Shown here: positions 1 to 39,439 of the stretch, in pieces
Layout: the number at the start of each line of letters is the position of its first letter
Numbering within the stretch: the first letter of the stretch is position 1
Source: a bacterium
GTDB taxonomy: Bacteria; Patescibacteriota; Minisyncoccia; Sungbacterales; GWA2-42-14
Length of the DNA stretch: 54,153 nt
Reading direction: 5' to 3'
NCBI GenBank assembly: GCA_030649305.1
Contig: JAUSFV010000005.1
Coordinates: forward strand, 1-54,153
Notes under the pieces: model-generated
Database searches by the model: none
What the model was told of the DNA's origin: nothing
The model's input: only the letters and a program-made list of their open reading frames with translations
Made by a program: the position numbers and the translations under genes

Positions 1-290
1 CGTGAGACAGGTTGGTCTCCTATCTACTGCAGGCGTCGATACGTGAAGGGCGTCGTTCCTAGTACGAGAGGACCGGAACGAACGAACCTCTGGTCTACGA
101 GCTGTCCTGCCAAGGGCACCGCTCGGTAGCTATGTTCGGACGGGATAAGCGCTGAAAGCATCTAAGTGCGAAGCCCATCCTAAGATTACGTATCATAAGA
201 TCCGTGAGAGATGATCACGTTGATAGGCCGCAGGTGGAAGCGCAGCAATGCGTTAAGCCGAGCGGTACTAATAGATCAATTTATTGTTAC
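1..290 (+). rRNA. rrl: 23S rRNA, 3' portion (runs off window start; 3' end approximate)
   Basis: Conserved domain V/VI motifs CGTGAGACAG, CCTAGTACGAGAGGACCGG (sarcin-ricin loop), GCTGAAAGCATCTAAG, CGTTGATAGG and GGTACTAATAG; helix 98 region is short. Confidence 0.97.
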
Positions 291-393: not shown

Positions 394-600
394 ATGGAAA
401 AATCATTTGGAGAAAGAATGGAAACAGATCCTGAATTGAGGGCGCGAGTCGAAAAAGGAGAGGCATTGTGGAGACGTGAAAAAGAATTGCTTGCGAAATT
501 AACACCCGAAGAGTGGGAAGAATTAAGAAAAATTCAAAGTGAACGAGCGGGATTGGGAAAACCAGGTGGTAAGTCAAATTTTTTCCCGGACGATAGATAA
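394..600 (+). CDS. Small charged helical hypothetical protein in the 23S-5S spacer
   Basis: Open frame from ATG 394 (alternative ATG 418) to TAA 600; E/K/R-rich composition; GGAGGT at 372-377. Confidence 0.55.
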   Translation: MEKSFGERMETDPELRARVEKGEALWRREKELLAKLTPEEWEELRKIQSERAGLGKPGGKSNFFPDDR

Positions 601-641
601 AAATAATATCGTGTTATAGAATCAAAACAAAAACTTTTATT

Positions 642-758
642 TGCTGGTATTTCATCTATGTGTGCCCCACCTCTTCCCATTCCGAACAGAGAAGTGAAAG
701 CGCATAGACTCGATGATACTTGGACCTTCGGGACCTGGGAAAGTAGAGTATGCCGGCA
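642..758 (+). rRNA. rrf: 5S rRNA
   Basis: CCACCTCTTCCCATTCCGAACAGAGAAGTGAAA, CGATGATACT and GGGAAAGTAG motifs; ends tgctggtat/atgccggca pair. Confidence 0.95.
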
Positions 759-775
759 TATAAAAGTTTTTGTTT

Positions 776-804
776 AAAAAAGGCCGTATTCCGCGGCTTT
801 TTTT
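776..804 (+). terminator. Intrinsic terminator after 5S
   Basis: aaggccg/cggcttt stem followed by a T-run. Confidence 0.7.
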
Positions 805-835
805 CTTATGTAGGGCGTGGTATCATATTTTATAT

Positions 836-1597
836 ATGTGGCGTACGCGAAGACAACTTACGGCGCTTTTAATTATCGTCCTCGTCGTCGGGGGTATCGG
901 GTTTTTATTTGTGCGTAATCTCCTGCCTGAGCCGACCTGTTTTGATAATCGAAAAAATCAGGGAGAGGAGGATACGGATTGCGGAGGGTCCTGTCTCCCC
1001 TGTATTTTTCGCAACAGGAGGCCGATTCAAGTTTTTTGGACGCGCGTAACGCCCGTTCGCGGGGGAGTGTATGCCGCCGTTGCTGAAGTTAAAAATCCCA
1101 ACAACGCCCTTGGCATTTCTGAATTTGAATATCTCCTGAAATTGTTTGATGACAAAGACGCGCTCGTGATTGAAAAGCGCGGTACCTCGTTTCTCTACGC
1201 TGATGAAGTTTCGCATGTTGTGGAAACGAATTTGCGAAGCGAGCGCCCGATTGTGCGGGGGGTATTGGAAATAGGAAGAACCGATTACGTCATTCGCGAT
1301 GATAACCCGCCCGATTTGATCGCGGGAGAAAAAGAGCTTCTTCTGGTTTCGCAAAATGGCGGCACCACGGAATTAAAGGCGCGTCTTTTTAACCGTACGT
1401 TAAATGATTTTCGTGCCATTTCGGTACATGGTATTTTGCTGGACCAAAGCCAAAATGTTCTTGCGGTGAGTTCTGTTCTTCTTGATGAGGTGCGTGGCGG
1501 AGAAGCAAAAGAGATTCGTTTTTTCTGGCCGGGAGAGATTAAAAATGTATCAGTTATGCTGGTTGAGCCGCGGGTCAATACATTAACTAACAACTAA
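836..1597 (+). CDS. Membrane-anchored hypothetical protein with Cys-rich motif (CFD..KNQGEE..DCGG.C..C) and beta-rich domains
   Basis: N-terminal TM helix; start moved to ATG 836, downstream of the rRNA terminator. Confidence 0.85.
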   Translation: MWRTRRQLTALLIIVLVVGGIGFLFVRNLLPEPTCFDNRKNQGEEDTDCGGSCLPCIFRNRRPIQVFWTRVTPVRGGVYAAVAEVKNPNNALGISEFEYLLKLFDDKDALVIEKRGTSFLYADEVSHVVETNLRSERPIVRGVLEIGRTDYVIRDDNPPDLIAGEKELLLVSQNGGTTELKARLFNRTLNDFRAISVHGILLDQSQNVLAVSSVLLDEVRGGEAKEIRFFWPGEIKNVSVMLVEPRVNTLTNN

Positions 1598-1620
1598 CAG
1601 CATATCACCAACAACACGCT

Positions 1621-2700
1621 ATGTTGTTTCGATTGAAACAAATGGACTGGGTCTTGAACGGGGCGCTTTTTTTTATTTGTGCTATCGGGCTTATTTCTCT
1701 TTTGAGCCTCTCCGGTTTTGAGGGGTCTTTTTTTCTGCGGCAACTCGCGTGGGTCCTTGTGGGTTCCGTCGCATTTTTATTTTTTTCATTGCTTGATTAT
1801 CGTATTTTTCGCGCAAGCGGCGTTTTCTTGCTTTCGTGTTATCTCATTGGGATAGCAGCACTTTTTTTGCTTCTTGCATTTGGTCCTACCACGCGCGGCA
1901 TTCGGGGATGGTTTGCGGCAGGGAGCATTGCAATCCAGCCGGTTGAATTTATGAAGCTTCTTTTGATATTACTCATCGCAAAATATTTTTCAAAGCGCCA
2001 TAGTGAAATTGCCCAAATGCGGCATCTCGTTATTTCCGGCATCTATTTTGCAATTCCCGTTCTTTTGGTTTTGTTGCAGCCGGATTTAGGGTCCGCATTC
2101 ATTCTTCTTGCCATCTGGGTCGCGGTCACTCTTTTTTCCGGAATTCGCCTGAAACATTTTTTGATACTGATGTCGCTTCTTGTTATTATTTCCGCAATCG
2201 CGTGGCTTTTTCTACTTGCCCCGTATCAGAAAGCGCGCATCACGGCGTTTCTTGACCCATATCAGGATCCGCGCGGCACGGGGTATAACGTAATTCAATC
2301 GCTTATTGCCGTGGGGTCCGGGCAGATGTGGGGGAAAGGGTTCGGGTACGGGTCGCAGACGCATCTTCATTTTTTGCCCGAAGCCGAAACTGATTTTATC
2401 TTTGCCGCGTTTGCCGAGGAGTGGGGGTTTGTAGGGGCGTTGGTGCTTTTGCTGCTCTATGGCGTTTTGTTATGGCGTCTGCTTCGCGTCGGTTTTTTTG
2501 CAAAGAACAATTTCGCCCGCCTGTACATTCTCGGATTTTCTACGCTCATTTCTACGCAAATTTTTATTCATATCGGCATGAATGTCGGTATTTTTCCCGT
2601 GACGGGTATTACGCTCCCCTTTATGAGTTACGGCGGTTCCAGTTTGGTAAGTCTAATGGCAGGAGCGGGGATTGCGCAGAGTATCAGGATTCATTCATAA
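1621..2700 (+). CDS. rodA: Rod shape-determining protein RodA (FtsW/RodA/SpoVE family)
   Basis: Multi-TM; [45 protein letters not shown] and [13 protein letters not shown] motifs. Confidence 0.93.
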
Positions 2701-2710
2701 TGAAAGAGAT

Positions 2711-3226
2711 ATGATATATTTTGCCTCCGACCACGCAGGTTTTGAGCTCAAAGAAAAACTGAAGGCATATCTTCAGGAATTTGGACATGAAGTTAAAGAT
2801 TGCGGGGCGTTTTCGTATGATGAAGTCGATGATTATCCAGATTTTATTGCTCTTGCGGCAAAAGCGGTATCGGAAGACCCCGAACATGCGCGCGCGATTA
2901 TTCTTGGCGGCTCGGGGCAGGGTGAGGCAATGGTAGCAAATAGATTTCGCGGAGTGCGCGCTGCCGTATATTACGGACCCGCCTCCACCAAGGCTCCCGC
3001 CTACGCAGATGCTTCTGCGGGCAGGTCGGCGGGCAAGGGCGACGAAATTATCACGCTTTCCCGTGAGCATAACGATGCAAATGTATTATCGCTTGGCGCG
3101 CGATTTTTGACGGAAGAGGAAGCAAAGCGCGCGGTAAAGCTTTGGCTTGATACGGCGTTTAGCGGAGAGGAGAGGCATGTGAGGAGGATTACAAAGATTG
3201 ATGAGATAGAGAAGAGCTTTAAATAA
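2711..3226 (+). CDS. rpiB: Ribose-5-phosphate isomerase B with a 20-aa repeat-derived insertion
   Basis: [33 protein letters not shown] and RH.RRI motifs. Confidence 0.95.
2978..3037 (+). repeat. Two 30-bp palindromic elements, one nested in the other, in frame in rpiB
   Basis: Outer cccgcctccaccaaggct^tcggcgggcaag; inner cccgcctacgcagatgcttctgcgggcagg (2996-3025); 23/30 identical. Confidence 0.85.
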
Positions 3227-3367
3227 TTAACCTAATTGACCTAATTTCTAATTGACCTAAAAAATATCCAATGTCTAATGATTTAATATCAAAATACTTT
3301 TGGACATTAGGTATTTCGTCATTGGGATTTGATTAGTAATTAGAGCAATTAGAATAATTAGAATAAT
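3227..3367. repeat. Composite imperfect inverted-repeat element filling the rpiB-rpe spacer
   Basis: Left arm of ctaattgac units, right arm of aattaga units; inner arms caatgtctaa/ttggacatt. Confidence 0.65.
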
Positions 3368-4000
3368 TTGGTCAAGGTTATTCCCGCAATCAATTCGCCT
3401 ACATGGGATGAAGTCGTTAAAAAAATACGGCTTGTTGAACCGTTCACGGATTGGGTGCATATTGATGTCGCAGACGGTACGTTTACGCCGAATACCTTGT
3501 GGCATAATCCGCTAGATTTGGTTGGGTTTGAAACAAAACTTAATCTGGAAATTCATTTGATGGAACGAGAACCCGAAGATAGATTTTCTACATGGTTTTT
3601 TCCGCGAGTCATGCGAATTATCGTTCAGCAGGAAGCAACGCGTGATTTTGATTTTATCGTAAATGCCTGCCATAATAATAAAGTAGAGGCGGGGATTTCT
3701 GTGTTAACCGAAACAAATTGGAGTGTTTTGAAGCCGTTTTTGGGCAAAGCCGATTTAGTTCAGTTTTTGGCGGTAAACCCCGGATTTGCAGGGCAAAAGT
3801 TTGATGAGCATAATTACTATAAAATTAAAAAAATCCGCGCGCTTGCTCCGCACATTCCGATTGAGGTTGATGGGGGAGTGAAAGTAGGGGTTGCAAAAAA
3901 ATGCGCAAGCGCGGGAGCAACGCATCTCGTTGCCGCGTCCGCAATTTTTGATGCGGTGGATATAGCAAAAGCGATTCAGAATTTAGAGAATGATATATAA
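3368..4000 (+). CDS. rpe: Ribulose-phosphate 3-epimerase
   Basis: HIDVADG, EIHLM, VNPGFAGQKF, IEVDGG and VAASAIF motifs; TTG start. Confidence 0.93.
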   Translation: MVKVIPAINSPTWDEVVKKIRLVEPFTDWVHIDVADGTFTPNTLWHNPLDLVGFETKLNLEIHLMEREPEDRFSTWFFPRVMRIIVQQEATRDFDFIVNACHNNKVEAGISVLTETNWSVLKPFLGKADLVQFLAVNPGFAGQKFDEHNYYKIKKIRALAPHIPIEVDGGVKVGVAKKCASAGATHLVAASAIFDAVDIAKAIQNLENDI

Positions 4001-6809: not shown

Positions 6810-7160
6810 ATGTCGGTTGAAATAAAAATATATAAAAGTCCGTTTGCAAAAACGGAATTGAGAGATATTGCACAACAGCAATTTGGTACTTTGGTGAAAG
6901 CGGTAGTGGATGTTAGCCGTGAGATTATAGCAATCGGCGGCGAATTACACGCGGATGAAGAAGCGGTACTGCTCGAAGACGGGTCGCGGCAGGAAGATGT
7001 GTGGGGGATTAATTTGTATCCCGAAAAGTCGGATGACGAATGGATAGAGTATGATTCTATGATTAATGTGAGACCGTCGCAAAATAATGCATCGCGGGGA
7101 GTTGAAGATGCGGCTATCCGAGAGAAAATTACATTGGTTGTGCGGAAACTTGTAATATGA
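6810..7160 (+). CDS. DUF5674-like protein
   Basis: KAVVDV, IAIGGELHADEE, GSRQEDVWGINLYP and SMINVRPSQNN motifs, recalled as DUF5674. Confidence 0.75.
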   Translation: MSVEIKIYKSPFAKTELRDIAQQQFGTLVKAVVDVSREIIAIGGELHADEEAVLLEDGSRQEDVWGINLYPEKSDDEWIEYDSMINVRPSQNNASRGVEDAAIREKITLVVRKLVI

Positions 7161-7525: not shown

Positions 7526-8530
7526 ATGCCTCTTAATCCACAAGCAAAATTAGTTTCAAATATTCTCGATGTAAAATCGCTTGAACAAAAACCGACGCGC
7601 GACGGGTTCGGTTTAGGTTTTGTGCAGGCGGCGGATGAAAATCCCGCAATCGTCGGGCTTTGTGCCGACCTTACCGAATCAACCCGCATGGATGTGTTTG
7701 CAAAAAAATATCCAGGTCGATTTGTAGAAATGGGGGTTGCGGAGCAAAATATGGCATCCGTCGCATCGGGGCTTTCAGCGGTCGGTAAAATTCCGTATCT
7801 CACGTCATATGCTATGTTCAGCCCAGGAAGAAATTGGGAGCAAATTCGTACAACCATTTGTTATAATAACAGAAATGTAAAAATTATCGGCTCGCACGCG
7901 GGGGTGTCGGTCGGGCCGGATGGCGCAACGCATCAGGCAATTGAGGATATTGCGATTACGCGCCCTATTGCGAATATGCAGGTGTTTGTACCCTGCGACA
8001 TGCACGAAGGAAAAAAAGTAACGTATGCCATTTCAAAGGTAGATGGGCCATGTTACGTTCGTTTTGCACGCGAGAAAACCCCCGTTTTTACTACGGAAGA
8101 AACGCTGTTTGAAATCGGAAAGGCGTATGCGTTTTGGCTTGAGCTAGAAGGTTTCAAGCCCGATGTTTCAATTATTGCTTGCGGTCCCCTGGTGCATAAC
8201 GCGATTCTTGCGGCTGCGGAATTGGAAAAAGAGGGATTGAAAATTCGCGTTATTAATAATCCCTCCATCAAGCCGATGGATGAGAAAACAATCATTCAAG
8301 CGGCAAAAGACGCGGGTGCGGTGGTTACCGTGGAAGAGCATCAGGTCGCGGGCGGTATGGGTTCTGCGGTTGCCGAAGTGCTCGCTAAAAATTACCCCGT
8401 GCCAATGGAATTTGTCGGTGTGCAGAATAGATTTGGTGAATCGGGTAACCCCAATGAACTTATTGAAGCGTTTGGTATGGGCGTATCTCATATCAAAGAA
8501 GCAGTTAAAAAAGTTTTAAAAAGAAAATAA
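7526..8530 (+). CDS. Transketolase, C-terminal (pyrimidine-binding + C) subunit
   Basis: ADLTESTR, EMGVAEQN, GPDGATHQAIED and TVEEHQ..GGMGS motifs. Confidence 0.95.
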   Translation: MPLNPQAKLVSNILDVKSLEQKPTRDGFGLGFVQAADENPAIVGLCADLTESTRMDVFAKKYPGRFVEMGVAEQNMASVASGLSAVGKIPYLTSYAMFSPGRNWEQIRTTICYNNRNVKIIGSHAGVSVGPDGATHQAIEDIAITRPIANMQVFVPCDMHEGKKVTYAISKVDGPCYVRFAREKTPVFTTEETLFEIGKAYAFWLELEGFKPDVSIIACGPLVHNAILAAAELEKEGLKIRVINNPSIKPMDEKTIIQAAKDAGAVVTVEEHQVAGGMGSAVAEVLAKNYPVPMEFVGVQNRFGESGNPNELIEAFGMGVSHIKEAVKKVLKRK

Positions 8531-9001
8531 ATGTCTCTCGTCAACGTACAAGACATTATGACAAAAGAAGTGATATCGGTGCATCCCGACATGCCCCTTC
8601 TTGAGGCTGCCAAAATATTATCAGAGCGTAATTTTGACGGCGTGCCGGTCGTGGATACAGATAATAAACTCGTCGGCATTCTTACGGAATATGACCTTAT
8701 TAGCAAGGAATCCATGATTCATCTTCCGACGTTTCAGAAAATTTTGCAAAATATCAAAGTTTTTAAAAAAGACCAGTCCGAGTTTCAAAAAGAAATTCAA
8801 GAGATATCTTTGCTTGTGGTACGAGATGTTATGAATACTGACCCCTTGACTCTTGGAGAACAGGCAACATTTATGGAAGTTCTTGATGCGTTTCGTAATC
8901 ATCATCGTGTCAATCCTATTCCGGTTATTGATTCTGACCGGAGGGTAGTCGGCGTTGTCAGCCGGTTTGATATTTTGAAACCGCTTCACGCTCTATCTTA
9001 A
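8531..9001 (+). CDS. CBS-domain protein
   Basis: Two CBS repeats (DIMTKEV..VPVVD..GILTEYDL; DVMN..IPVID..GVVSRFDI). Confidence 0.93.
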   Translation: MSLVNVQDIMTKEVISVHPDMPLLEAAKILSERNFDGVPVVDTDNKLVGILTEYDLISKESMIHLPTFQKILQNIKVFKKDQSEFQKEIQEISLLVVRDVMNTDPLTLGEQATFMEVLDAFRNHHRVNPIPVIDSDRRVVGVVSRFDILKPLHALS

Positions 9002-13245: not shown

Positions 13246-13325
13246 AAGGCGGTAGGTTTAATGTATCCTCGTTTCTTTATTCGCATATTTGCTCGTCAAA
13301 CATGCGTTGGGGGGGGGTAATATAT

Positions 13326-16300
13326 ATGAAAAAATTTATACTATCAATCATGTTGGGGGCTTTTTTGATAAGTCCGGTTTTTGCGTTCGCGCAAACAACG
13401 AATGATGCGCTTATCGCGCAGTTGCAAGCACAAATCGCGTCTTTACAGGCTCAGATCAATGTGCTTATCGCGCAGCAGGGGGGTACTCCTTCGTCTTCGG
13501 TGAGTTTTCAAAACGGCGACAGGGTTGAGGTCGCGGCATCGGTGCTTGCGGTTCGCAATGCCCCCACTACTTCCGGAGTGATCGTGGGGAAAGTATCCGT
13601 TGGAATGAAAGGCACGATACGGTGTGACGCGTCGTCATCGAATTTTTCTTGTCCGACGGCAGCAAGCGGTTATACATGGTGGTACATAGATTGGGATAAT
13701 TCGTCTTTGCCGAACGGCTGGTCCGCAGAAGGAACTTCGGAGGCGATATTTTTGACGAAGATACCGTCGGTCACAGAAGAACCGAATCCTGCGTCGTATG
13801 TATCAATTTCGGTCCCTCAAACATTGCAAGTTGGCAAGTCGCAACAAGTGTTCGCAAAATTAGTAACAACCGACGGAAAAAGTCAGGATGTTACTTTGGA
13901 GACAGAGTGGAGTTCGTCCGATTCAAAAATAGTCAGAATTGGTGGAGCGTCTTGTCCTGCAGGAACATATTGTGCGCAGGTGCTCAATGGATACTATGTG
14001 TATGGAGACGCCCCGGGGACTGCGGTTATCACTGCGACGTATCAAGGCATGACACAACAGACAAAAGTTACGGTTACGCAAATATTGGTTGAAGTTTCTC
14101 CTTCTATTACTATTCTTTCTCCAAACGGGGGCGAGACGTGGATGGTTGGCTTCCCGCAAACAATAAAATGGATAAGCAGTAATTTTCCATCTGATCGGAA
14201 GATAGATGTTGTGAGATTAAGGGATTCCTATGGTAAAGAAATCTATCTTTTATACGGGACGATTAACGACGGTTTTGAGCAAATTGTCGTGCCTTCCGTA
14301 CCCGCTGGTCCGTATACGCTTGAAATAAAAACATATTCTTCAAGCGGTGAATTGATTTTTGACGCGAGCGACGCGCCGTTTAGTATTGTTTCCTCCGGCA
14401 CTTGGCAGGAAATCGGCTCTCTTTCTGTGTCGCTTGATTCTTCAAACACCGCGTATTATATTGCCGCAGCCGGAACAAATGATAATAATCTCGCAATGCT
14501 GAAATTTCATGCGGCTAATGAAGCGATCAATTTGAAGAAAGTTGGGTTGCAGCTTTCAATGACTTCTTTTAATTCGCCGCAGGACCTGGTTAATGAGAAA
14601 GTAACTTTGTGGGATGGCGCGACGAAAGTCGGTGAGGCGATCTTCACGACGCAAACTCCTGACTTCGCGACATCAACTCTGACAGCCGACTTTATTATCC
14701 CTAAAGATGGCGACAAACTCATGACTATTCGGGGAAGCTTTGCGCCGATTGGGGTCGCGCAACCAGGAACGCCGGGGGCATGGGTGGTCGTTGATTATGA
14801 CGGATCGAATAGGCTCGGCACCCAGGGAGTTGGCATGTCATCAGGAAATACGATATATACTTCAACGGCGTATGATACGGCATCAAACGGCGTTCATGTT
14901 TTTAGATCATATCCGACGGTTGCAAAAATTGATGTGACCGGAGCTTTGATTTCGGGTCGCCGCGACCTCTTGAAGTTCAAAATTACCGCAGCTCCGCAGG
15001 GCGATGTCGGTATTGCGAAATTTGCTATCAGAACTCAAATTTCTTCCGTAACCCCCGGCTCATTGCTTGATAATATTAATCTGTACGCGTATAACGATTC
15101 TTCTTTTTCTTCCGTTGCTTCGGGTATTCAATCCGACGGCGCGCTACAGCTTACGTATACAAGCAGCGGCAGTACCGGAGGAACGTATTATATATATCCG
15201 AGAAATGCGAGTGGTCAAAATACGGCATTTCTTATTCCTGCGGGTCAGACACGTTACTTTGTGGTGCGGGGCGACGTAACCCTTGCGGGAGAAACAGTAA
15301 GCGTGGTTACTCAGCTTCTTGGTGATAGTGTCGGGAATGTTGGTCTTCGGACGGTCGCGGAGATTGATTCGACGGCATATGATAATTTTATCTGGTCGGG
15401 CAACTCTACTACCACCGCAACGGTTTTGCATCGTGATTGGTCAAGCGGTTATCTTGTGCCTGGATTGCCCGAAGGCGGTTTCAGCCAGACGTTTACGGGA
15501 GGCGGCGGTGGGCAAACCCCCTCCATCATCGTTCTTTCACCGAATGGGGGGGAGGCCTTTGTTGCCGGATCGCAGATGACGGTTCGGTGGTCTACTCAGA
15601 ATTTTCCAAATGCTCCGATTAACCTCTACCTTTTTACTAGCAACGTTACTCCTCCGACTGAGTCGAGTTATCAATGGGTTGCAAATATCGCTTTTCAGAC
15701 AGCTAATGATGGATCAGAAACGTGGACTATTCCCACAAATATTATTTCTGGGTCTCGATATTTCGTTCGCATTCTTGGGTACGATCAGACTGGATATACT
15801 TTTCCGAGCGGTTGTTTAGACGGTTGTCGTAATGACGACAGCGACGCGTCGTTTAGTATTGTGGGCACCACCTCTACACTCAAAAGCACTATTCAGGGCT
15901 ACAAAATTGATTCGGCAGGCAACGTGTTTACTAATCCCGGCGCAATCATTACCGTAAGCGGCGCGGTGAATCAGACCTATGGCACATCCGCCAATCCCTA
16001 CTTTGCTCAGCAAATTCCCGCAGGGAACTATACCGTCTCTTCATCCGTGCCAAGCGGCTACACAGTATCGTATTCGCTTTGTACAAACTGCATTGACCAC
16101 CCTGCGTCCAGTTATGTTTCGGGAAACTCGGTCAGCGTGAACGCGCCATCAGGAGGCTATGCGGATTTGTGGTGGAAGTATACGCTTCAGATATCAGGAC
16201 AAAGTGTTGCCATCTCCCGCACGCCGCAAACTTCATTTTCATCGCCCTACCGCACCGGTAGTGCCACCACTCTCAATGCTACGGTTTCTTCATCTTTATT

Positions 16301-17597
16301 CTCCACCGATCAGCAAGTAAAAGTGTATCGTAAAATCGGAACCGGTTCTTCGTTTGTGAGTGATATGACAACCACGTTTGCGTTGCGCGATAACGGTGTT
16401 TGTAACCCTTCGGCGGGTACCTGCAGTGTCGCAGGAATATGGAGCGAATTTTCTTGCCCCACCGGCGTTTCAGGCGTTCAGCAGATGACCGAATGGGTGA
16501 CGATTGGCAGTGTAACGTCAAATCAAATCCAATGGTGGTTTGAGTGCAGTAGTACGGTTGCTGCTGAACAGCCTGTTACCATTTTGCAGTCTTGGCCTAC
16601 AGCGCCAAGCGCTCAGCCCGGCCAGTCATTCTCTCTCACCTACAATTGGAGCGGAGGCCCGACAAGCAGTTCAAAACAGGTTTTTGTGCATTTTGTAAAT
16701 AGCGCGGGTCAGATTGTATTTCAGGATGACCATACGCCACCCGTGCTTACGAACCAGTGGTCCGGTACGAGAAACTATACGCGTACTATTACCGTTCCCG
16801 CGTCAACGGCTGTGGGAACCTACCGTATTATGGCAGGGCTCTATGACCTTGCTACCGGAGCGCGTCTTACTCTTACTTCTACTTCCGGTTCGGGGGTAAT
16901 TGCTGATACGCAGGATTTGCTTCGGTATCAGATTGGGACATTGACGGTTTCGAGTTCTCTGGCCGTTACTTCTTCTCTCAACGCGTCAGGAGGCTTTTCT
17001 GCAAAGCAGGGCGACAAGAGTTGGTTTTATATGTACGCAAAACCTGTCGGTTCTACACAACCCACGCTTTTGACAAATATGGAAAAATTTGACGGAACTC
17101 AAAATCGTTGGCAGGGTGGTGATGAACAGTACCTTTTACTTTGGGGCAGTGGCGGGCATCCTGGAGTGAATGCCGATGCGGTGCGCCGTTGGGTCGCGTC
17201 CGTGGCGGGAAATGTTGTTTTGAAGGGTAAGGCTTTTGATGGGCATGTCGGATGTGGTACGGATGGCGTTGTAGTCTCTATTAGAAAAGCAAGCGGTAAT
17301 GGCTCAACTCTTCTGTGGGGGCCACATACGATTCAGAAAGATAGCACAGTCGGGGTTTCCTATGATAATGTGTCGGTATTTTTGAATGCGAATGAGGGGC
17401 TTGATTTTGTTATTAGCAGGGGAGTTGATGACGGTTGTGATTCGACCGTGTTTGATCCTACTATAATATTTACTCCGCAATCGTCGGGCGCTGGTTCTCT
17501 GGATTCCGAGAAGCAATTTGCGAGTATTCTTTCATCAATACAAGCACAGCTTAACGAAATTGCGAACGCAATTAGGATGTTAATGATTCGGCGATAA
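13326..17597 (+). CDS. Large modular surface protein (signal peptide, coiled coil, SH3-like, Ig-like and SPNGGE-type modules)
   Basis: MKKFILSI..AFA signal; LIAQLQAQIASLQAQI coil; two ILSPNGGE modules; S/T/G-rich beta composition; alternative ATG 13302. Confidence 0.9.
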   Translation: MKKFILSIMLGAFLISPVFAFAQTTNDALIAQLQAQIASLQAQINVLIAQQGGTPSSSVSFQNGDRVEVAASVLAVRNAPTTSGVIVGKVSVGMKGTIRCDASSSNFSCPTAASGYTWWYIDWDNSSLPNGWSAEGTSEAIFLTKIPSVTEEPNPASYVSISVPQTLQVGKSQQVFAKLVTTDGKSQDVTLETEWSSSDSKIVRIGGASCPAGTYCAQVLNGYYVYGDAPGTAVITATYQGMTQQTKVTVTQILVEVSPSITILSPNGGETWMVGFPQTIKWISSNFPSDRKIDVVRLRDSYGKEIYLLYGTINDGFEQIVVPSVPAGPYTLEIKTYSSSGELIFDASDAPFSIVSSGTWQEIGSLSVSLDSSNTAYYIAAAGTNDNNLAMLKFHAANEAINLKKVGLQLSMTSFNSPQDLVNEKVTLWDGATKVGEAIFTTQTPDFATSTLTADFIIPKDGDKLMTIRGSFAPIGVAQPGTPGAWVVVDYDGSNRLGTQGVGMSSGNTIYTSTAYDTASNGVHVFRSYPTVAKIDVTGALISGRRDLLKFKITAAPQGDVGIAKFAIRTQISSVTPGSLLDNINLYAYNDSSFSSVASGIQSDGALQLTYTSSGSTGGTYYIYPRNASGQNTAFLIPAGQTRYFVVRGDVTLAGETVSVVTQLLGDSVGNVGLRTVAEIDSTAYDNFIWSGNSTTTATVLHRDWSSGYLVPGLPEGGFSQTFTGGGGGQTPSIIVLSPNGGEAFVAGSQMTVRWSTQNFPNAPINLYLFTSNVTPPTESSYQWVANIAFQTANDGSETWTIPTNIISGSRYFVRILGYDQTGYTFPSGCLDGCRNDDSDASFSIVGTTSTLKSTIQGYKIDSAGNVFTNPGAIITVSGAVNQTYGTSANPYFAQQIPAGNYTVSSSVPSGYTVSYSLCTNCIDHPASSYVSGNSVSVNAPSGGYADLWWKYTLQISGQSVAISRTPQTSFSSPYRTGSATTLNATVSSSLFSTDQQVKVYRKIGTGSSFVSDMTTTFALRDNGVCNPSAGTCSVAGIWSEFSCPTGVSGVQQMTEWVTIGSVTSNQIQWWFECSSTVAAEQPVTILQSWPTAPSAQPGQSFSLTYNWSGGPTSSSKQVFVHFVNSAGQIVFQDDHTPPVLTNQWSGTRNYTRTITVPASTAVGTYRIMAGLYDLATGARLTLTSTSGSGVIADTQDLLRYQIGTLTVSSSLAVTSSLNASGGFSAKQGDKSWFYMYAKPVGSTQPTLLTNMEKFDGTQNRWQGGDEQYLLLWGSGGHPGVNADAVRRWVASVAGNVVLKGKAFDGHVGCGTDGVVVSIRKASGNGSTLLWGPHTIQKDSTVGVSYDNVSVFLNANEGLDFVISRGVDDGCDSTVFDPTIIFTPQSSGAGSLDSEKQFASILSSIQAQLNEIANAIRMLMIRR

Positions 17598-21848: not shown

Positions 21849-24800
21849 ATGCACATCTTTTCTTCCAGAAAAATATATACCAAGGTCGTTTCATTTCTCG
21901 TAACCTTGTTATTTTTAATTGAATCAACGCTCTTGCCGATTATAACGCTTCTGCCTCGCGCTGCGTCAGCCGCGACGACGACATTTACTGCTTCGGCAGA
22001 TTTTTCCACTAGTACCCAGGGTCAAAAAAACTGGTGGTATCTTTCATCCTCCGGCGCGCAGATGACGTATGATTCCGCAAATAGTCGTTGGAAAGGGAAT
22101 GAAGAATATTTATTGCTTGGAAGTAACTGGGGGCATCCGGGTAATAACGCGGATGCGCTTCGCCGCTGGATTGCACCGCAGGCGGGCAGCATTCGTATTA
22201 CCGGAAACGCGCGTGACAGTCACGCCGGATGCGGTACTGATGGCGTTACGGTTACCATCCGTAAGGTTGTTAATAATGCTATTGTCGCTACATTGTGGAA
22301 TCAAACAATTCCCAAAGATAATACGACCGGTTATAACTTTGACGTCACAACGTCCGTCAGTCAGGGAGATTCTATTGATTTTGTTATCAACAAAGGGATT
22401 GATAATGGTTGTGATTCAACCGTGTTTGATCCGACGATTGTGCTTACCGCATCAGCTGCCGGTTCGTGGGGTGTTTCTATTGATTCGGGAAAAGCGGGGA
22501 CATTTCCAAACCCTGTTGTTCGCGGCAAGCCCGTTGATTTTCTGGCGACGCTGACAGTAACCGATCCGCCGTCTCCCTTGAATTTCAAACTAGAGGTATC
22601 AAAGGATTTGGTTCTCCGTCATTACTACATTACACGGACGGGGGGACAAGAAACCGCGCTGAACGATCCATCCCGTCCCGCGGCAACGCTCGCCAATCGA
22701 ACTGCATATGTCTGGGATTTCTATAATTTGACCACCGGCGTATATACGTTGCGGTTTAATTTTGACGTGCCGTTGACAACCACAGAGACAAGCGCGCAAT
22801 TTGATATTTTTATGGCCGGTCTTCATAGTGGTTATGGCTCCGGTTATCAAGATCAGTCTTTTCCGGTGCCGGCGCTGACGTTTCCTTCCGGGGCGAGTGT
22901 GTCGCAGGGAACGCCGCTTATCGTTGCAATCGCGAATGCGACTGGCAATACAACGGTATATGTTAATTGCATTGTTCCGACTGGTGCTGTATGCGCTGAC
23001 AATCTTGCGGAGGGCATAACGAATGCTTCGGGTCAATGGAGTAAGAGTTATGATACCTCGGGATGGACTCTTGGAACATATCGCGCCTGGGTCAGCGTAG
23101 GAGGGTTAAAATCAAATCTTGGATTTTTTACTATCACGCAACCCTCAACCTTGCCTTCTACCATCCAGGGCTACAAGATTGATTCTTCCGGCGCTGTCTT
23201 CTCAAGCCCCGGTGCTACCATTACCGTTGCCGGTTCATCATTCAGCCAATCCTATGGTCCCACTACCAATCCGTATTTTGCCCAGCAAATTCCGGCGGGA
23301 AATTACACTGTTACCTCATCTGTTCCCACCAGCTACACTGTTTCGTATTCTCTCTGCTACAATTGCGCGAACAATACCGACCCCCATCCCGCATCAAGCT
23401 ATGTTTCGGGGCCTTCAGTATCGGTAAGCGCTCCCGCAGACGGTTACGCTGATGTATGGTGGAAGTATACCCTCCAGACATCGGGACAATCCGTCTCTAT
23501 TTCGCGAACCCCCGCAACGTCTCAAACAAATCCCTATCGCACGGGTAGTGCCACCACATTCAATGCCACGGTTTCTCCATCATTGTTCTCCACGGATCAG
23601 CAAGTAAAGGTGTATCGTAAAATCGGAAACGGTTCTCCTTTTGTGAGCGATACCTCAACCACGTTTGCTCTCCGCGACAATGGTGTTTGTAACCCTTCGG
23701 CGGGTACTTGCAGTATCGCAGGAACATGGAGTGAATTTACCTGTCCCACCGGCGTTTCAGGCGTTCAGCAGATGACCGAATGGGTGACGATTGGCAGTGT
23801 AACGTCAAATCAAATCCAATGGTGGTTTGAGTGTACAACGGCCGCCAGTCAGCCCGTCACTATTCTTCAGTCTTGGCCTACAACGCCAAGCGCCCAGCCC
23901 GGTCAGTCATTCTCTCTCACGTATAATTGGAGTGGAGGCCCGACAAGCAGTTCAAAACAGGTTTTTGTGCATTTTGTAAATAGCGCGGGTCAGATTGCGT
24001 TTCAGGATGACCATACGCCGCCCGTGCTTACGAACCAGTGGTCCGGCGCGAAAAACTATACGCGCACCGTTACCGTTCCCGCGTCAACGGCTGTGGGAAC
24101 CTACCGTATTATGGCAGGGCTCTATGACCTTGCTACCGGAGCGCGTCTTACTCTTACTCCCGGTTCAGGGGTAATTGCCGATACGCAGGATTTGCTTCGG
24201 TATCAGATTGGGACATTGACGGTTTCGAGTTCTCCGAGTGCTCAATTTGAAATTCGTCCCGCAAGCGCATCGCTTTCAGTTGGCCAAACGCAAACGCTCG
24301 CCGCGTGGTTTATGCCTGCTGGCGGATCGGCGTCGGATGTTACGAGTCAAACGCAATGGTCATCTTCCAATGCCGCAGTCGCGGAATTAGGCGCGCCTCC
24401 GGGTTCAAACGCGAACAACACCGTCCTTGGCCGTGCGGCAGGCAGTGCGGTGATTACCGCAACGTATCAGGGGCAGACGGCGCAGGCGATGGTGACGGTT
24501 GGTACATCAGGAACGCAACTGGTCGTTTCAAAAATTGATTTTTCTGACCTGCTTCTTTCCGGTCGCCGTGATCTCTTGAGATTCAAAATTGCAGCACCTT
24601 CGGGGAGTGATGTGGGCATTGCAAAGTTTACTATTCGTAATTCTATTACTTCTGCATCATCCGGCTCTTTAATTGATAATTTGAATATATACGCGTATAC
24701 CGATTCTAGCTTTTCTACGGTTGCTTCCGGCGTCCAAGCTGACGGTTCGTTACAAGTTTCTCATGCGCGTACTGGGGGCATTTCAGGCGCAGAAGTTGAT

Positions 24801-27800
24801 GTATACGCCCAAAATACAGGCGGAAGTAATACCCTTGTTAATATTCCTGCGGGTCAGACTCGCTGGTTTGTTGTTCGGGGTGATGTAACTATAGCGGGGA
24901 CTAGTGTGAGTTCCGTGTCCGCTCTTTCGGGTGATGCAAGCGGGGCGGGGTCGGGGACGTTTTCGTCAGTGAATTCGGCAGCGAATAACAACTTTATTTG
25001 GGCGTCGAATTCTGCAGGTAAATCGCTTTCTACGATAACTAATTTTCAAAATGGGTATGGCATAAATGGGTTGCCCGTAAGCGGATTAAGCCAAACACTT
25101 ACCGGCGGAGGAGTGGTTACCCCCTCCACCATCCAAGGCTACAAGATTGATTCTTCTGGCGCTGTCTTCTCAAGCCCCGGTGCTACCATCACCGTTACTG
25201 GCTCTTCGTTCAATCAATCCTATGGTCCTATCACCAATCCGTATTTTGCCCAGCAAATTCCCGCGGGAAACTACACCGTCACCTCATCCGTTCCTACGGG
25301 CTACACTGTTTCGTATTCTCTCTGCTATAATTGCGCGAACAATGCCGACCCTCATCCCGCGTCCAGTTATGTAGCGGATTCTTCAGTATCGGTAAACGCT
25401 CCCGCAGGCGGCTACGCTGATGTATGGTGGAAGTATACCCTCCAGACATCGGGACAATCTATCGTCATTTCCCGCACTCCCCAAACTTCAACCGTATCTC
25501 CATTCAAAGCAGGGGATACGACTACCTTCGCCATGACGATTCCTTCGTCACTCTTTCTTGATACCACTGCGGTTACGCTGCATAGTCAAATGACCGGCGG
25601 CGCTGACCAGCAATCAAACTATACCGTTGCTTCGTTGAAATCCGCGAATGTCTGCAACACCTCCGGTTCTTGTTCGGTCACCGGCGTCTGGAACGCATCC
25701 CAATTCACCTGTCCCGCGGGCGTTTCCGGTACTGCGCAGATGAAAGAATGGGTGACGGTGGGCAATACGACGTCAAATCAGATTCAGTGGTATTTTCAGT
25801 GTGAAGGAGATGCAATTGAGGGCGTGTTATTTGAAATTCGTCCCGCAAGCGCATCGCTTTCAGTTGGCCAAACGCAAACGCTCGCCGCGTGGTTTACGCC
25901 TGCTGGCGGATCGGCGTCGGATGTTACGAATCAAACACAATGGTCATCTTCCAATCCCGCGGTCGCGGAATTGGGCGCGCCTCCGGGTGGAGCCGTAAAT
26001 AATATTGTGCTGGGTCGCGCAAACGGCGCTGCGACGATTACCGCAACGTATCAGGGGCAGACGGCGCAGGCGACGGTTACTGTAGGATCTGAAGTTGCGG
26101 CTTTTGCACTTGACCTCAAAGTAAATAATGCTGATGGACCCGTTAGCGTCCAAGTGAATACTCCCGCTACCGTTTCGTGGACTACGCAAGGGTTTAGTGC
26201 GGGTGGTATGCGCTGTTCAACATCCGGCGCCCCAACTGGTTCGCCGTTCCATACCGCATCCGGCGTTTCTGGCTCGGTGCAAGTAACATTCCCGCAAACG
26301 CAAAGCTACACGTTGCAGATGACCTGTTTTGACGATTTGCGCGTAACGGCAAATGGGTCAATACCTTCTGCTTCCGATAGCGTTACGGTAAATGTGGCCG
26401 CTGTTCCTTCGGGTCTTTCTGCACCAACCCCCGAAACCGCGCCGATGGATGTTTTGCGTCTGCAAAGCGATCAGGATGTGGTTACCACTACGGGCTTTTG
26501 TTATAATTTTACCTGTACAGGCCTAATTCCGGTAACCGCAGGAAGCGTATACACATTTTCCGCAAACCTGAATGCGGGTCTTGTTGGATTTCCGCAGGAT
26601 TCGCTTTTGTGGATTACGTTACCTCCGCAGGCAACGCTTTTTGGTATTATTTTGGATAGTAGAACGCTTACGAGTGGGACCGATTATGTGCTAGACCGTG
26701 GTCATTATAAACTTTCAATGAGCCAACTCGGACTTTTGTCGGGTACTCATTCAATCAAAGTTGCACTTCAATCAGATCCTTTGGCGCTTGACCACTTGGC
26801 TGTGCTCAAAATGAACATCACTGACGGCGGCCTTACAAAAACTTTCATTCGTGAACGTACCGCGTCAGTATCGGTGCGTCATGCCGTTACCGAGGTTATC
26901 GGAAAAACCAATATCTCTATCCCAGGTGCTAGCCCTTACCCGCCATATTTTCCGACTATTCAAGAAAGTGATGTGCATCGTTTGCAGACATATCCGGCTC
27001 CTGCCCAAATCTGTGATGCAAGCGCTGGAACGGGCATAAAATGCAGACCTCCGTCTTTGAGAGAGGCCTCCGGGCCGGTTTCGCGCGGTGTCCCTACTAT
27101 TGCTTATACACTGCTTGGCGATGTCGTGCCGATATATGTAAATCAGTTTTCCGATTCGTTGAGCCGCGAGTTTATTATCGCAAATTATAACTTCTTACTT
27201 GGTCGCAATCCGACTGATGCGGAAATGCAAAAATATCTTTCGCTTTTTACGCAATGGCGTGATCCGGTAAACGAACTTATTGATGTATATAAGCGGAGAG
27301 TTGATGTGCAGGAGGCAATGAAAGCGGCAACCCCGTTTCCTTGCGGGAATTTAGGAGATTGTATTATTCCTCTTACCCTTGCTGACACAAGTCGGACGCC
27401 TTTGTATAACTGGGCGTATAGTTTTGGCGCAAACGAAGAACCGACACTGAAAGCATTTAAAGAGAACGTAAGCCAGCAAGCGCTTGATGTATTGCGCCAG
27501 GTTTGGAATGACTATAATAGTAAGCTTGAGGCGGCATATAAGTTGTATCAGCAAAACACCAATTCAATCTGTTTTTCTTGTACACCGCCTCCGCCTCCGC
27601 TTTGTGCGCGCGTATTTGCAGAACCATATATAGTCAATGGTCTATATAATTATAAAAGCTATTTTGACTCTTGTCGTCAGCAGGCGATTCTTTGGGCGAA
27701 AAATGCAGGATGGGCTAGCGCTGTAAGGCTTGGAGCTTCCTCTTTCTCTTTTGATTCGTCTATACCCACCATTGGTCAAACGCTCGCACCTTACTTTGCT

Positions 27801-39182: not shown

Positions 39183-39326
39183 GGCCCCATTTTGTAACTG
39201 TGGTTACGCTGTAGACAAAATCGGAGCTAGTAGTTAGGACATGTGGTTCTTTCACCCACCCAAATTTTTATGGCCTCATCGTCTAGTGGTCAGGACGTAT
39301 GGTTCTTTCACCCTCCCACCTTTTAT
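39183..39326 (+). pseudogene. Two degenerate tandem copies of the tRNA-Glu 5' half
   Basis: Unit B (39272-39307) is 29/36 identical to the tRNA 5' half; unit A is more decayed and interrupted by a 30-bp hairpin insert (39191-39220). Confidence 0.75.
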
Positions 39327-39398
39327 GCCCCTGTCGTCTAGTGGTTAGGACGCATGGTTCTCATCCATGCAACCGGAGTTCGATTCTCCGCAGGGGCG
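39327..39398 (+). tRNA. tRNA-Glu (CTC)
   Basis: Acceptor gcccctg/caggggc; anticodon arm catgg-ttCTCat-ccatg; T arm cggag-ttcgatt-ctccg; CCA not encoded. Confidence 0.95.
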
Positions 39399-39439
39399 TA
39401 GGAAAAGGTGGGCGGGCAAGTCTATAAAACCGGGGCACG

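Follow-up and report, generated by a model that had tools for sequence, protein, structure and literature searches.

The window analysed here, 54,153 nt long, is contig JAUSFV010000005.1 of assembly GCA_030649305.1, a contig of Patescibacteria/Candidate Phyla Radiation (CPR) type whose source sample is a groundwater metagenome. It carries a gene for ribose-5-phosphate isomerase B (rpiB), with an FtsW/RodA gene on one side and a ribulose-phosphate epimerase gene and split transketolase genes on the other. The rpiB gene contains an in-frame insert of 60 nt, CCCGCCTCCACCAAGGCT followed by CCCGCCTACGCAGATGCTTCTGCGGGCAGG and TCGGCGGGCAAG (Table 1). An earlier reading of the window, made from the letters without database searches (the sequence-only reading), had resolved this insert into two 30-mers of one family, the outer one being interrupted after base 18 by the inner one. 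The data presented below make it probable that the insert is built of two nested members of a family of G+C-rich, hairpin-forming, non-coding mobile elements of 30 nt, referred to here as units.

The rpiB insert and its relatives

When the 18 and 12 nt of the outer unit are joined, the resulting 30-mer is identical to the inner unit at 23 of 30 positions. The insert has a G+C content of 72% as compared to a window mean of 46% (standard deviation 8.5% in 60-nt windows) and is among the top five 60-mers of the window. Unitigs of the source run (X1) cover positions 2875-3035 and 3006-3254 without any difference, at a depth of about 42 that equals the depth of the flanks, showing that the insert is not an assembly artefact. 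As single-stranded DNA, the 60-nt doublet folds at -17.3 kcal/mol (z = -3.5) and the inner unit at -8.8 kcal/mol (z = -3.05). The CCCGCC...GCGGGC arms announced by the sequence-only reading need a correction for the inner unit, the right arm of which reads TGCGGG, so that its stem has five pairs and one mismatch.

No credible further copy of either 30-mer was found in the window at up to nine mismatches (Hamming scan, arm patterns and position weight matrix, PWM). G+C spikes in secA, in a mur ligase gene and in a Gly/Pro-rich open reading frame (ORF) were considered as units and rejected as ordinary conserved or low-complexity coding sequence. In public data, both halves of the doublet have close relatives in unrelated contigs, as expected for a repeated element: the nearest copies differ from the outer unit by one mismatch (L158, L206) and from the inner unit by three (L144, L166, L220). 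Thus the lack of other copies, which had been named beforehand as fatal to the idea of a family, is true of the 54-kb window and fails in public data.

Table 1. Features of the rpiB locus (window coordinates) and parts of the 30-nt unit (unit positions)
Feature	Position	Strand	Remarks
rpiB (ribose-5-phosphate isomerase B, LacAB_rpiB family)	2711-3226	+	171 aa; ORF list, PF02502 on all homologues
Left flank of the insertion site	2968-2977	+	TAT TAC GGA (Tyr-Tyr-Gly)
In-frame insert of 60 nt, nested doublet of two 30-nt units	2978-3037	+	Encodes RpiB residues 90-109
Outer unit, positions 1-18 (A part)	2978-2995	+	Left arm CCCGCC 2978-2983, internal-loop strand, inner stem, apex; split score 43.0 at k = 18
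Inner unit, "YADAS" subtype	2996-3025	+	CCCGCCTACGCAGATGCTTCTGCGGGCAGG; left arm 2996-3001, right arm TGCGGG 3016-3021, tail CAGG 3022-3025; PWM score 37
Outer unit, positions 19-30 (B part)	3026-3037	+	TCGGCGGGCAAG; right arm GGCGGG 3028-3033, tail CAAG 3034-3037
Unit: left arm	1-6		YCCGCC
Unit: internal loop, 5' strand, three unpaired bases	7-9		T-N-C
Unit: inner stem, 3 bp	10-12 with 15-17		GCY / RGC
Unit: apex, 2 nt	13-14		R-A
Unit: internal loop, 3' strand, three unpaired bases	18-20		T-T-C
Unit: right arm	21-26		GGCGGR
Unit: conserved unpaired tail	27-30		C-A-R-G

The host gene is a regular member of its family. PF02502 and the motifs DH..GF, GxGxGE and REHN(D/N)AN were found, and the invariant residues lie outside the insert. 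The M. tuberculosis enzyme (2VVO/1USL) aligns to residues 2-89 and 114-169 of the window protein; between these two blocks the solved structures have 3 residues and the window protein has 24. In an AlphaFold2 model, the core has a pLDDT of about 90, and residues 94-108 fall below 50. This low-confidence segment directly follows the strand 84-87 and precedes the helix leading to the invariant REHNDAN motif. The doublet would therefore be translated into a disordered surface loop of 20 residues between strand 4 and the helix before REHND, and such a loop most likely leaves the enzyme unaffected or impairs it slightly.

We aligned 120 RpiB homologues, the closest of which is 80% identical to the window protein; a search of the contig index for the identical protein gave no match. 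The closest insert-free proteins (74-77% identity) read YYG/GNEKII across the site, as an alignment of orthologues was predicted to show. The closest homologues overall, P0002-P0004 (80%), have 10 extra residues there. Decapeptides resembling PASAKASAGK reappear at the same loop in more distant homologues, and P0054 has 20 extra residues, split as in the window protein. An unrelated conserved loop of 20 aa (Daviesbacteria-type) occupies the site in 37 of the 120 orthologues, and odd loops are found in many others, for which reason the site is intrinsically permissive. An unrelated loop of equal length had been named as a result that would speak against an insertion. It was thus partly found; since the nearest insert-free relatives have no loop, however, the window insert counts as a gain. 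The site is a naturally variable surface loop, predicted to be disordered, that was independently struck several times.

At the DNA level, the rpiB relatives show empty, single and nested sites. The gene in L081 (protein P0043; 67% protein and 69% DNA identity) has a single intact unit, CCCGCCTCCGCCAAGGCTTCGGCGGGCAGG, starting from the codon where the window insert lies, and this unit is identical to the reconstructed outer unit of the window at 28 of 30 positions. In L083 (P0002) the site holds a single decayed unit. The gene in L241 (P0051) has a single unit, which in L082 (P0054; 81% DNA identity to L241) is interrupted after base 18 by another 30-mer. Single-unit sisters are thus available for both nested rpiB genes, and global pairwise alignments of the window with L083 and of L082 with L241 each place a 30-nt gap exactly at the split between bases 18 and 19. 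Together, the unbroken unit of L081, the alignment gaps and the coverage by X1 unitigs show that the nested parse is real, as are the length, frame and 23/30 identity given by the sequence-only reading.

Other relatives carry the unit in other ways. Reverse-complement copies were found in L084 and L242, and a copy in another frame in L243. These three inserts have no clean parse and resemble a unit wrapped by a second one that is split after base 11-12. The orthologue in L240 is empty and reads TATTATGGT directly followed by GGAGGTGAA. In a neighbour-joining tree made with the loop columns left out, unit-bearing genes are scattered among sisters with an empty site, which indicates at least five independent gains at this loop. 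A further empty allele comes from a 743-nt contig of X2, 98% identical to window positions 2600-2973, which then continues with TGGCGGGGACGAAAAAATTATAACGCTTTC, that is, YYGGDEKIITLS; its site reads TAT TAT GGC GGG GAC GAA AAA ATT, and the contig ends 39 nt past it.

Two further length differences were seen among these relatives. The spacer that separates ftsW/rodA from rpiB measures about 150 nt in the X2 contig (record positions 290-441) and 25 nt in the window (2684-2710), making it a second indel difference between very close strains. L082 has a second surplus of 30 nt as compared to L241 at 868-957 (P0054 residues 51-80; AVSRCEQDSPSTGLGQTQCRGIV versus AVAKDPEGSRGIV), which contains AGCCCTTCGACTGGCTTAGGGCAAAC, a look-alike of the unit with shortened arms.

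A dispersed family of 30-nt units

Copies were collected with the pattern YCCGCCTNNNNNNANNCTTNNGCGGRCARG, in which only the positions common to seven copies were kept and 10 positions were left free (N). Matches numbered 35 in the viral contigs of IMG/VR; the metagenome contigs of JGI/ENA gave at least 120. The family statistics are drawn from the matches listed (133 distinct units for the structure, 203 for the split scan described below and 66 distinct copies from low-G+C contigs). The consensus of the unit is YCCGCCTYCGCCRAGGCTTCGGCGGRCARG. The free pattern positions are mostly conserved, at 72-96%, with positions 8 and 13 variable. The host contigs span 32-74% G+C with a bimodal distribution (35-45% and 60-70%), and one identical 30-mer, CCCGCCTGCGCCGAGGCTTCGGCGGGCAGG, occurs 13 times among the loci, at least 12 of these in low-G+C contigs with unrelated flanks.

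The unit has sharp edges, its information content being at background at positions 0 and 31-35, with unrelated flanks. No target-site duplication was found, direct flank repeats of 2-8 nt being no more frequent than in permuted controls, and no conserved motif was found in the left flank. The right flank begins with YCSG in 18 of the 66 low-G+C copies, and the base at its start tends to be the one with which the unit itself starts. Because YCSG resembles both the start of the unit and the start of its B part, this suggests a weak target preference 3' of the entry point. A length variant of 33 nt occurs in L093. Both lengths are multiples of three, as had been pointed out for the window unit; in genic copies this is expected anyway, because selection would retain only such lengths. 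The outer unit of the window indeed has no stop codon in any of the six frames, and the inner unit has a single one, in a reverse frame. The openness first read as a feature of the element reflects composition only, however: 50 of the 133 members share it, as compared to 44.4 +/- 5.1 after shuffling, three of the frames being almost always open and the other three often not.

The secondary structure ((((((...(((..)))...)))))).... was tested on the 133 distinct units. Paired cells amount to 94.4%, and double-sided changes are seen in seven of the nine pairs. This level of pairing was reached by 0 of 500 shuffles, and slid registers did not come close either. Pairs 1:26, 11:16 and 12:15 covary within each G+C stratum (Fisher p from 2e-5 to 2.5e-18). 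Six variable pairs of non-symmetric positions served as comparison; 11 of the 12 tests showed no association, the exception being 1:29 in the high-G+C stratum (p = 0.006). An artefact of G+C content, in which changes from C-G to T-A would follow the direction of AT drift, was considered and rejected, since the covariation holds within strata and is not seen between non-symmetric sites. The covariation of symmetric positions therefore indicates a two-stem hairpin. Given the pairing up to a 2-nt apex, the conserved bases T7, C9, T18, T19 and C20 and the conserved 3' tail, we infer that a folded DNA strand is recognised by a protein, rather than that the unit acts as an RNA hairpin.

Copies sit both in genes and between them. 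Long ORFs hold 37 of the 66 low-G+C copies, 19 on the coding strand and 18 on the opposite one, and all six frames are used, as illustrated by the translated readings PAYAKASAGK, LPAEASAKAG, PARRSLGAGG, PPSLKLRRA, RLRQGFGGQ and CPPKPRRRR. Units lie in frame in rpiB and in many other ORFs. The hosts and neighbours are housekeeping genes, with units in ThyA, PPDK, EPSP synthase, tRNA synthetases and the tail of ribosomal protein S16. Two thymidylate synthase genes from different low-G+C contigs (L198, about 7714-8703; L215, 3045-4013) carry a unit after YGxQWRxW. The S16 gene of L182 (10960-11499), with 180 codons, is about twice the usual length, and its C-terminal extension is built of translated units, including a nested doublet. 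One inverted pair of units was seen (L108).

Phages are hosts as well. The phage contig L093 (34% G+C), which encodes a terminase, a Mu-type portal and a holin, holds tandem and nested units that are grouped in two intergenic clusters. In high-G+C contigs, three homologous capsid-protease fusions carry the unit at three different places and in three different frames, and two portal genes that are about 95% identical differ by a 66-nt insertion with two more units. The portal shares 62% identity with its counterpart in Bradyrhizobium phage ppBeUSDA76-2. The hosts of the family thus comprise low-G+C uncultivated bacteria, low-G+C phages and high-G+C phages related to a Bradyrhizobium podophage.

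As side observations, ThyA is, after RpiB, another enzyme family in which a loop is occupied more than once. Intergenic units in L157 (about 7066-7135), L164 (about 188-250) and L183 lie between inverted-repeat flanks, gtagggcaggtt ... aacctgccctac, as if a unit had entered the loop of a pre-existing hairpin, possibly a terminator.

The density of copies varies. In 80 loci taken from GTDB species-representative genomes, many of CPR type and together 1.3 Mb long, a single copy was found. The window has one locus in 54 kb and L081 one in 20 kb, and one phage contig (L089/L112) has up to six copies per 27 kb. The consensus had no real BLAST match in PLSDB plasmids or INPHARED phages, so that at the sensitivity used the family is absent from these collections of cultured organisms. 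No Rfam family matched the insert or ten element-bearing loci (cmscan). A full-text literature search, which included the DNA core and the six translated peptides as strings, returned no description of the unit, and the family is apparently undescribed so far. An origin from a 16S rRNA fragment, considered on account of a 12-nt resemblance, was dropped because cmscan gave no rRNA match on the insert.

Insertion into its own sequence and the origin of the doublet

For each of the 203 units, we asked whether the flanks (k nucleotides on the left, 30-k on the right) rebuild a unit. Nine units are wrapped in this way. The split lies at k = 18 in seven of them (window, L082, L132, L139, L169, L182 and L213) and at k = 11-12 in the remaining two, which are related reverse rpiB copies; two tandem pairs were also recovered. 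When the flanks were displaced as a control, three weak and scattered matches were obtained. In addition, three inner units of 33 nt in L093 lie at the junction of positions 18 and 19, and L222 has one more, with a decayed outer B part. Copies thus stand alone, lie nested, or abut each other directly at a period of 30 nt. The subtype often differs between inner and outer units; this difference and the 33-nt length of the inner unit in L093 exclude a local duplication as the origin of nested units. Overall, the family targets its own sequence, as had been suggested from the window alone, with a preferred entry at T18/T19 in the 3' strand of the internal loop.

Nesting had also been taken to mean two successive events in rpiB. 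The doublet is nested indeed, but the events may predate its presence in rpiB, because the allele that is 98% identical upstream of the site is empty and doublets exist elsewhere. Matches to 2978-3037 that cover the doublet only, in other contexts, were found in X3 (57/60) and X8 (51/59, at depth 111 and with AT-rich flanks), and further ones in X2 and in the source run X1. Several of them show the A part, then CCYGCCTACGC..., then TCGGCGG. A 60-nt doublet could accordingly have formed elsewhere and entered rpiB in one step as a composite, by insertion or recombination, and we give this course nearly an even chance. It agrees with the site of the close X2 relative, which is fully empty instead of holding a single unit, and with the doublets of the same outer and inner subtypes in other contexts (X3, X8, several in X1, X2). 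The arms of the outer unit are perfect in the window and the single unit of P0002-P0004 is decayed (ACTACC...), which suggests a separate, older insertion in those relatives. On the other hand, P0002-P0004 are the nearest proteins with anything at the site and carry the outer unit alone in the same register, as a stepwise build-up would leave it. Moreover, the X2 contig with the empty site ends so soon after it that it may be a recombinant or belong to a different lineage, and the contigs with doublets in other contexts are readable only in part. Considering the empty allele and the doublets elsewhere, we regard arrival as a composite as at least as likely as nesting within rpiB, and lean slightly towards the ready-made doublet.

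Proposed mobilisation, related systems and consequences

In the mechanism that we propose for the spread of the family, units would be moved in trans by an enzyme recognising the folded single-stranded hairpin together with its tail. The palindrome, the adjacent conserved tetranucleotide and the lack of a duplication recall repetitive extragenic palindromic (REP) sequences with their RAYT transposases and the insertion sequences (IS) IS200/IS605, and by this analogy a HUH/Y1-type transposase would be a candidate, put forward as a weak guess. A new unit entering a resident one at T18/T19 gives an A-[unit]-B doublet. The A and B parts would act as functional ends, so that a doublet could be moved again as a composite of 60 nt. 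Within coding sequence, survival would be limited to insertions into permissive loops; a length of 30 nt would keep the frame, and G+C-rich sequence would rarely bring stops.

Several results weigh against this picture of a transposed hairpin. The search pattern prescribed the bases of pairs 2:25 to 5:22, so that their conservation is informative only in secondary copies; in such copies, not constrained by the pattern, compensated arms are found (CCTGCC/GGCAGG, GCCGCC/GGCGGC, CCCGTC/GACGGG, CCCGGC/GCCGGG). Single units fold no better than composition-matched shuffles (z = -0.6 and -1.2). Pfam searches found no enriched or adjacent transposase among 150 genes neighbouring low-G+C copies, 10 cluster neighbours and 20 of the 51 window ORFs, the only recombinases among the 150 being two large serine recombinases. 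In the same set there was no RAYT (Y1 transposase), a gene that could act in trans from elsewhere. The conserved 5' target tetranucleotide predicted by transposition of the IS200/IS605 type was not found. The copy number per genome may be low, unlike that of classical REPs. Finally, near-identity across phyla is hard to reconcile with vertical decay, and transfer is something that we infer.

The main mechanistic rival reads the 26-nt palindromic core (12 + RA + 12) as a duplex site for a dimeric recombinase, of serine-invertase or resolvase type, or for a DNA-binding protein. We consider it unlikely. The 12-2-12 layout with its CC-AA-GG centre presumably resembles hix-type sites. The covariation reaches the pair beside the 2-nt apex, an arrangement that does not favour an RNA hairpin, and the tandem arrays of L093 and L199 and the two serine recombinases would also fit, although two among 150 neighbours are no enrichment. 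A dimer, however, would not call for internal-loop strands that are conserved yet asymmetric (TNC versus TTC), nor for a conserved asymmetric 4-nt tail belonging to the unit; the preferred entry lies at 18/19 and not at the dyad centre 13/14; and half-sites need no Watson-Crick complementarity of several kinds, with swaps from G-C to C-G as observed here.

We think it quite improbable that the units are structured elements of benefit to the host, such as mRNA-stabilising or pausing hairpins or protein loop modules, spread by selection. Unpaired bases and pairing are strongly conserved, several copies lie directly 3' of stop codons in high-G+C phage contigs, and positions 17-22 carry the motif cUUCGg, which would form a very stable tetraloop in RNA, all of which a useful RNA would explain. 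Yet the 19 copies on the same strand as the gene and 18 on the opposite one, in all six frames, keep no single peptide or RNA strand. Units are present or absent among near-identical genes, Rfam offers no match, and the rpiB insert is predicted to be disordered. Selection alone cannot put the same 30-mer into unrelated genes.

A purely local origin of the 60 nt, by slippage or duplication of an ancestral rpiB loop with the likeness of the 30-mers as a by-product, would suit an indel-prone site, and two adjacent tandem duplications would formally yield an A-A'-B'-B layout, but this reading is effectively refuted, as the window 30-mers are closer to copies in unrelated contigs (1-3 mismatches) than to each other (7), the unit occurs at hundreds of other loci, the rpiB allele at 98% identity is empty and the inner and outer subtypes differ.

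Returning to a mobile unit, its close parallels include the REP/REPIN sequences of Proteobacteria with their RAYT (Y1, HUH) transposases. Like a REP, the unit falls within 20-40 nt as a G+C-rich imperfect palindrome without target duplication or coding capacity, has a short conserved unpaired motif beside the stem (GTAG in REPs, CARG here) and is presumed, by analogy, to be mobilised in trans from a single-stranded hairpin. REPs, however, are extragenic by definition, differ in sequence from species to species, number hundreds of copies and are typically arranged in inverted pairs (REPIN/BIME). The unit is intragenic in about half of the low-G+C cases, near-identical across very different genomes and phages, and apparently sparse; its doublets are direct and nested at 18/19, not inverted, and the examined copies had no RAYT gene nearby.

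Rickettsia palindromic elements (RPEs), reportedly described by Ogata et al. in 2000, are palindromic selfish DNA of 100-150 nt found in Rickettsia only (families RPE-1 to RPE-8), in frame within ORFs and also intergenically (see also PMC1779305, PMC1458961). The unit shares with them the intergenic copies and the in-frame genic insertion as an extra surface segment at a permissive site, its translation being predicted here. It is set apart by description, as a 30-nt element with sharp edges in groundwater CPR-type bacteria and phages, whereas site-specific self-nesting is not known from RPEs; the two are not expected to be related in sequence. The G+C clusters of yeast mitochondrial DNA are palindromes of 30-50 nt, tandem or nested, occasionally in frame (var1), with short flanking target repeats. 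They, among related organellar palindromic mini-elements (PMC2670323, PMC6649704), resemble the unit as G+C-rich palindromes that stand out from an A+T-rich genome and occur in tandem or nested. The unit differs in having no target duplication and bacterial and phage hosts of 32-74% G+C; G+C clusters are organellar and lineage-specific.

RUP of Streptococcus pneumoniae, and IS1397 and ISKpn1 in the loops of REPs, prefer copies of a repeated palindromic element. This insertion preference is shared by the unit. [quoted passage not shown] The unit lacks the target-site duplication of a MITE, and its arms are subterminal at the 3' end, where the 4-nt tail follows. Elements of the IS200/IS605 type (PATE-like derivatives) have hairpin ends and insert 3' of a fixed tetra- or pentanucleotide without duplication; the unit has a hairpin and no duplication, but no conserved motif in its left flank, and YCSG in the right flank only in the minority of copies noted above. 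CRISPR repeats (28-37 nt, with unique spacers of similar length) do not match copies that are solitary, nested or abutting. The unit works like REPs, RPEs and organellar G+C clusters but fails their defining features, namely extragenic location, size, target duplication and host range.

Elsewhere in the window, rpiB and the epimerase gene are separated by an A+T-rich spacer (3221-3370; motifs such as TAATTGACCTAA and AATTAGAATAATT) that contigs match at word depths of 600-3700 in all four groundwater runs, as compared to about 40-70 in its flanks. Joints that skip 57-95 nt come in dozens of kinds, and the spacer has the look of an intergenic repeat, highly abundant and variable, that is common to many organisms in the samples. 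The window opens in a 23S rRNA gene, whose 3' end occupies positions 1-291; a 5S rRNA gene (642-759) comes about 350 nt later. The only tRNA gene is tRNA-Glu(CTC) at 39326-39399. Two ORFs are very large (21849-29462, 2538 codons; 13302-17594, 1431 codons), and neighbouring ORFs of 755 and 607 codons carry bacterial Ig (Big_7) domains, which suggests large surface proteins.

As a tentative proposal, possible in our view rather than probable, the unit would represent an undescribed class of mobile DNA, near the minimum size for one. Its A (18 nt) and B (12 nt) ends would be recognised by a widespread putative enzyme, and cargo, including other units, would be carried between them. The elements would be exchanged between phages and very distant bacteria, from CPR to Proteobacteria-type hosts, and would remodel surface loops of core enzymes and virion proteins in six frames. 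If this is true, the 30-nt signature offers a searchable mark of an element that writes 10-residue loops into RpiB, ThyA, S16, tRNA synthetases and phage capsid and portal proteins, and the fixed T18/T19 entry point is a precise biochemical handle for the search for its enzyme. Near-identity in genomes of 32-74% G+C and in phages would then mean one of two things, a recent transfer between hosts that are very far apart or a recognising machinery that is strongly conserved. Inserts of this kind make sequences look more divergent than they are and disrupt alignments and assemblies at these loops, and should be masked in the phylogenomics of these lineages. For the genome-reduced CPR bacteria, the family would provide a direct route from selfish DNA to variation in protein length.

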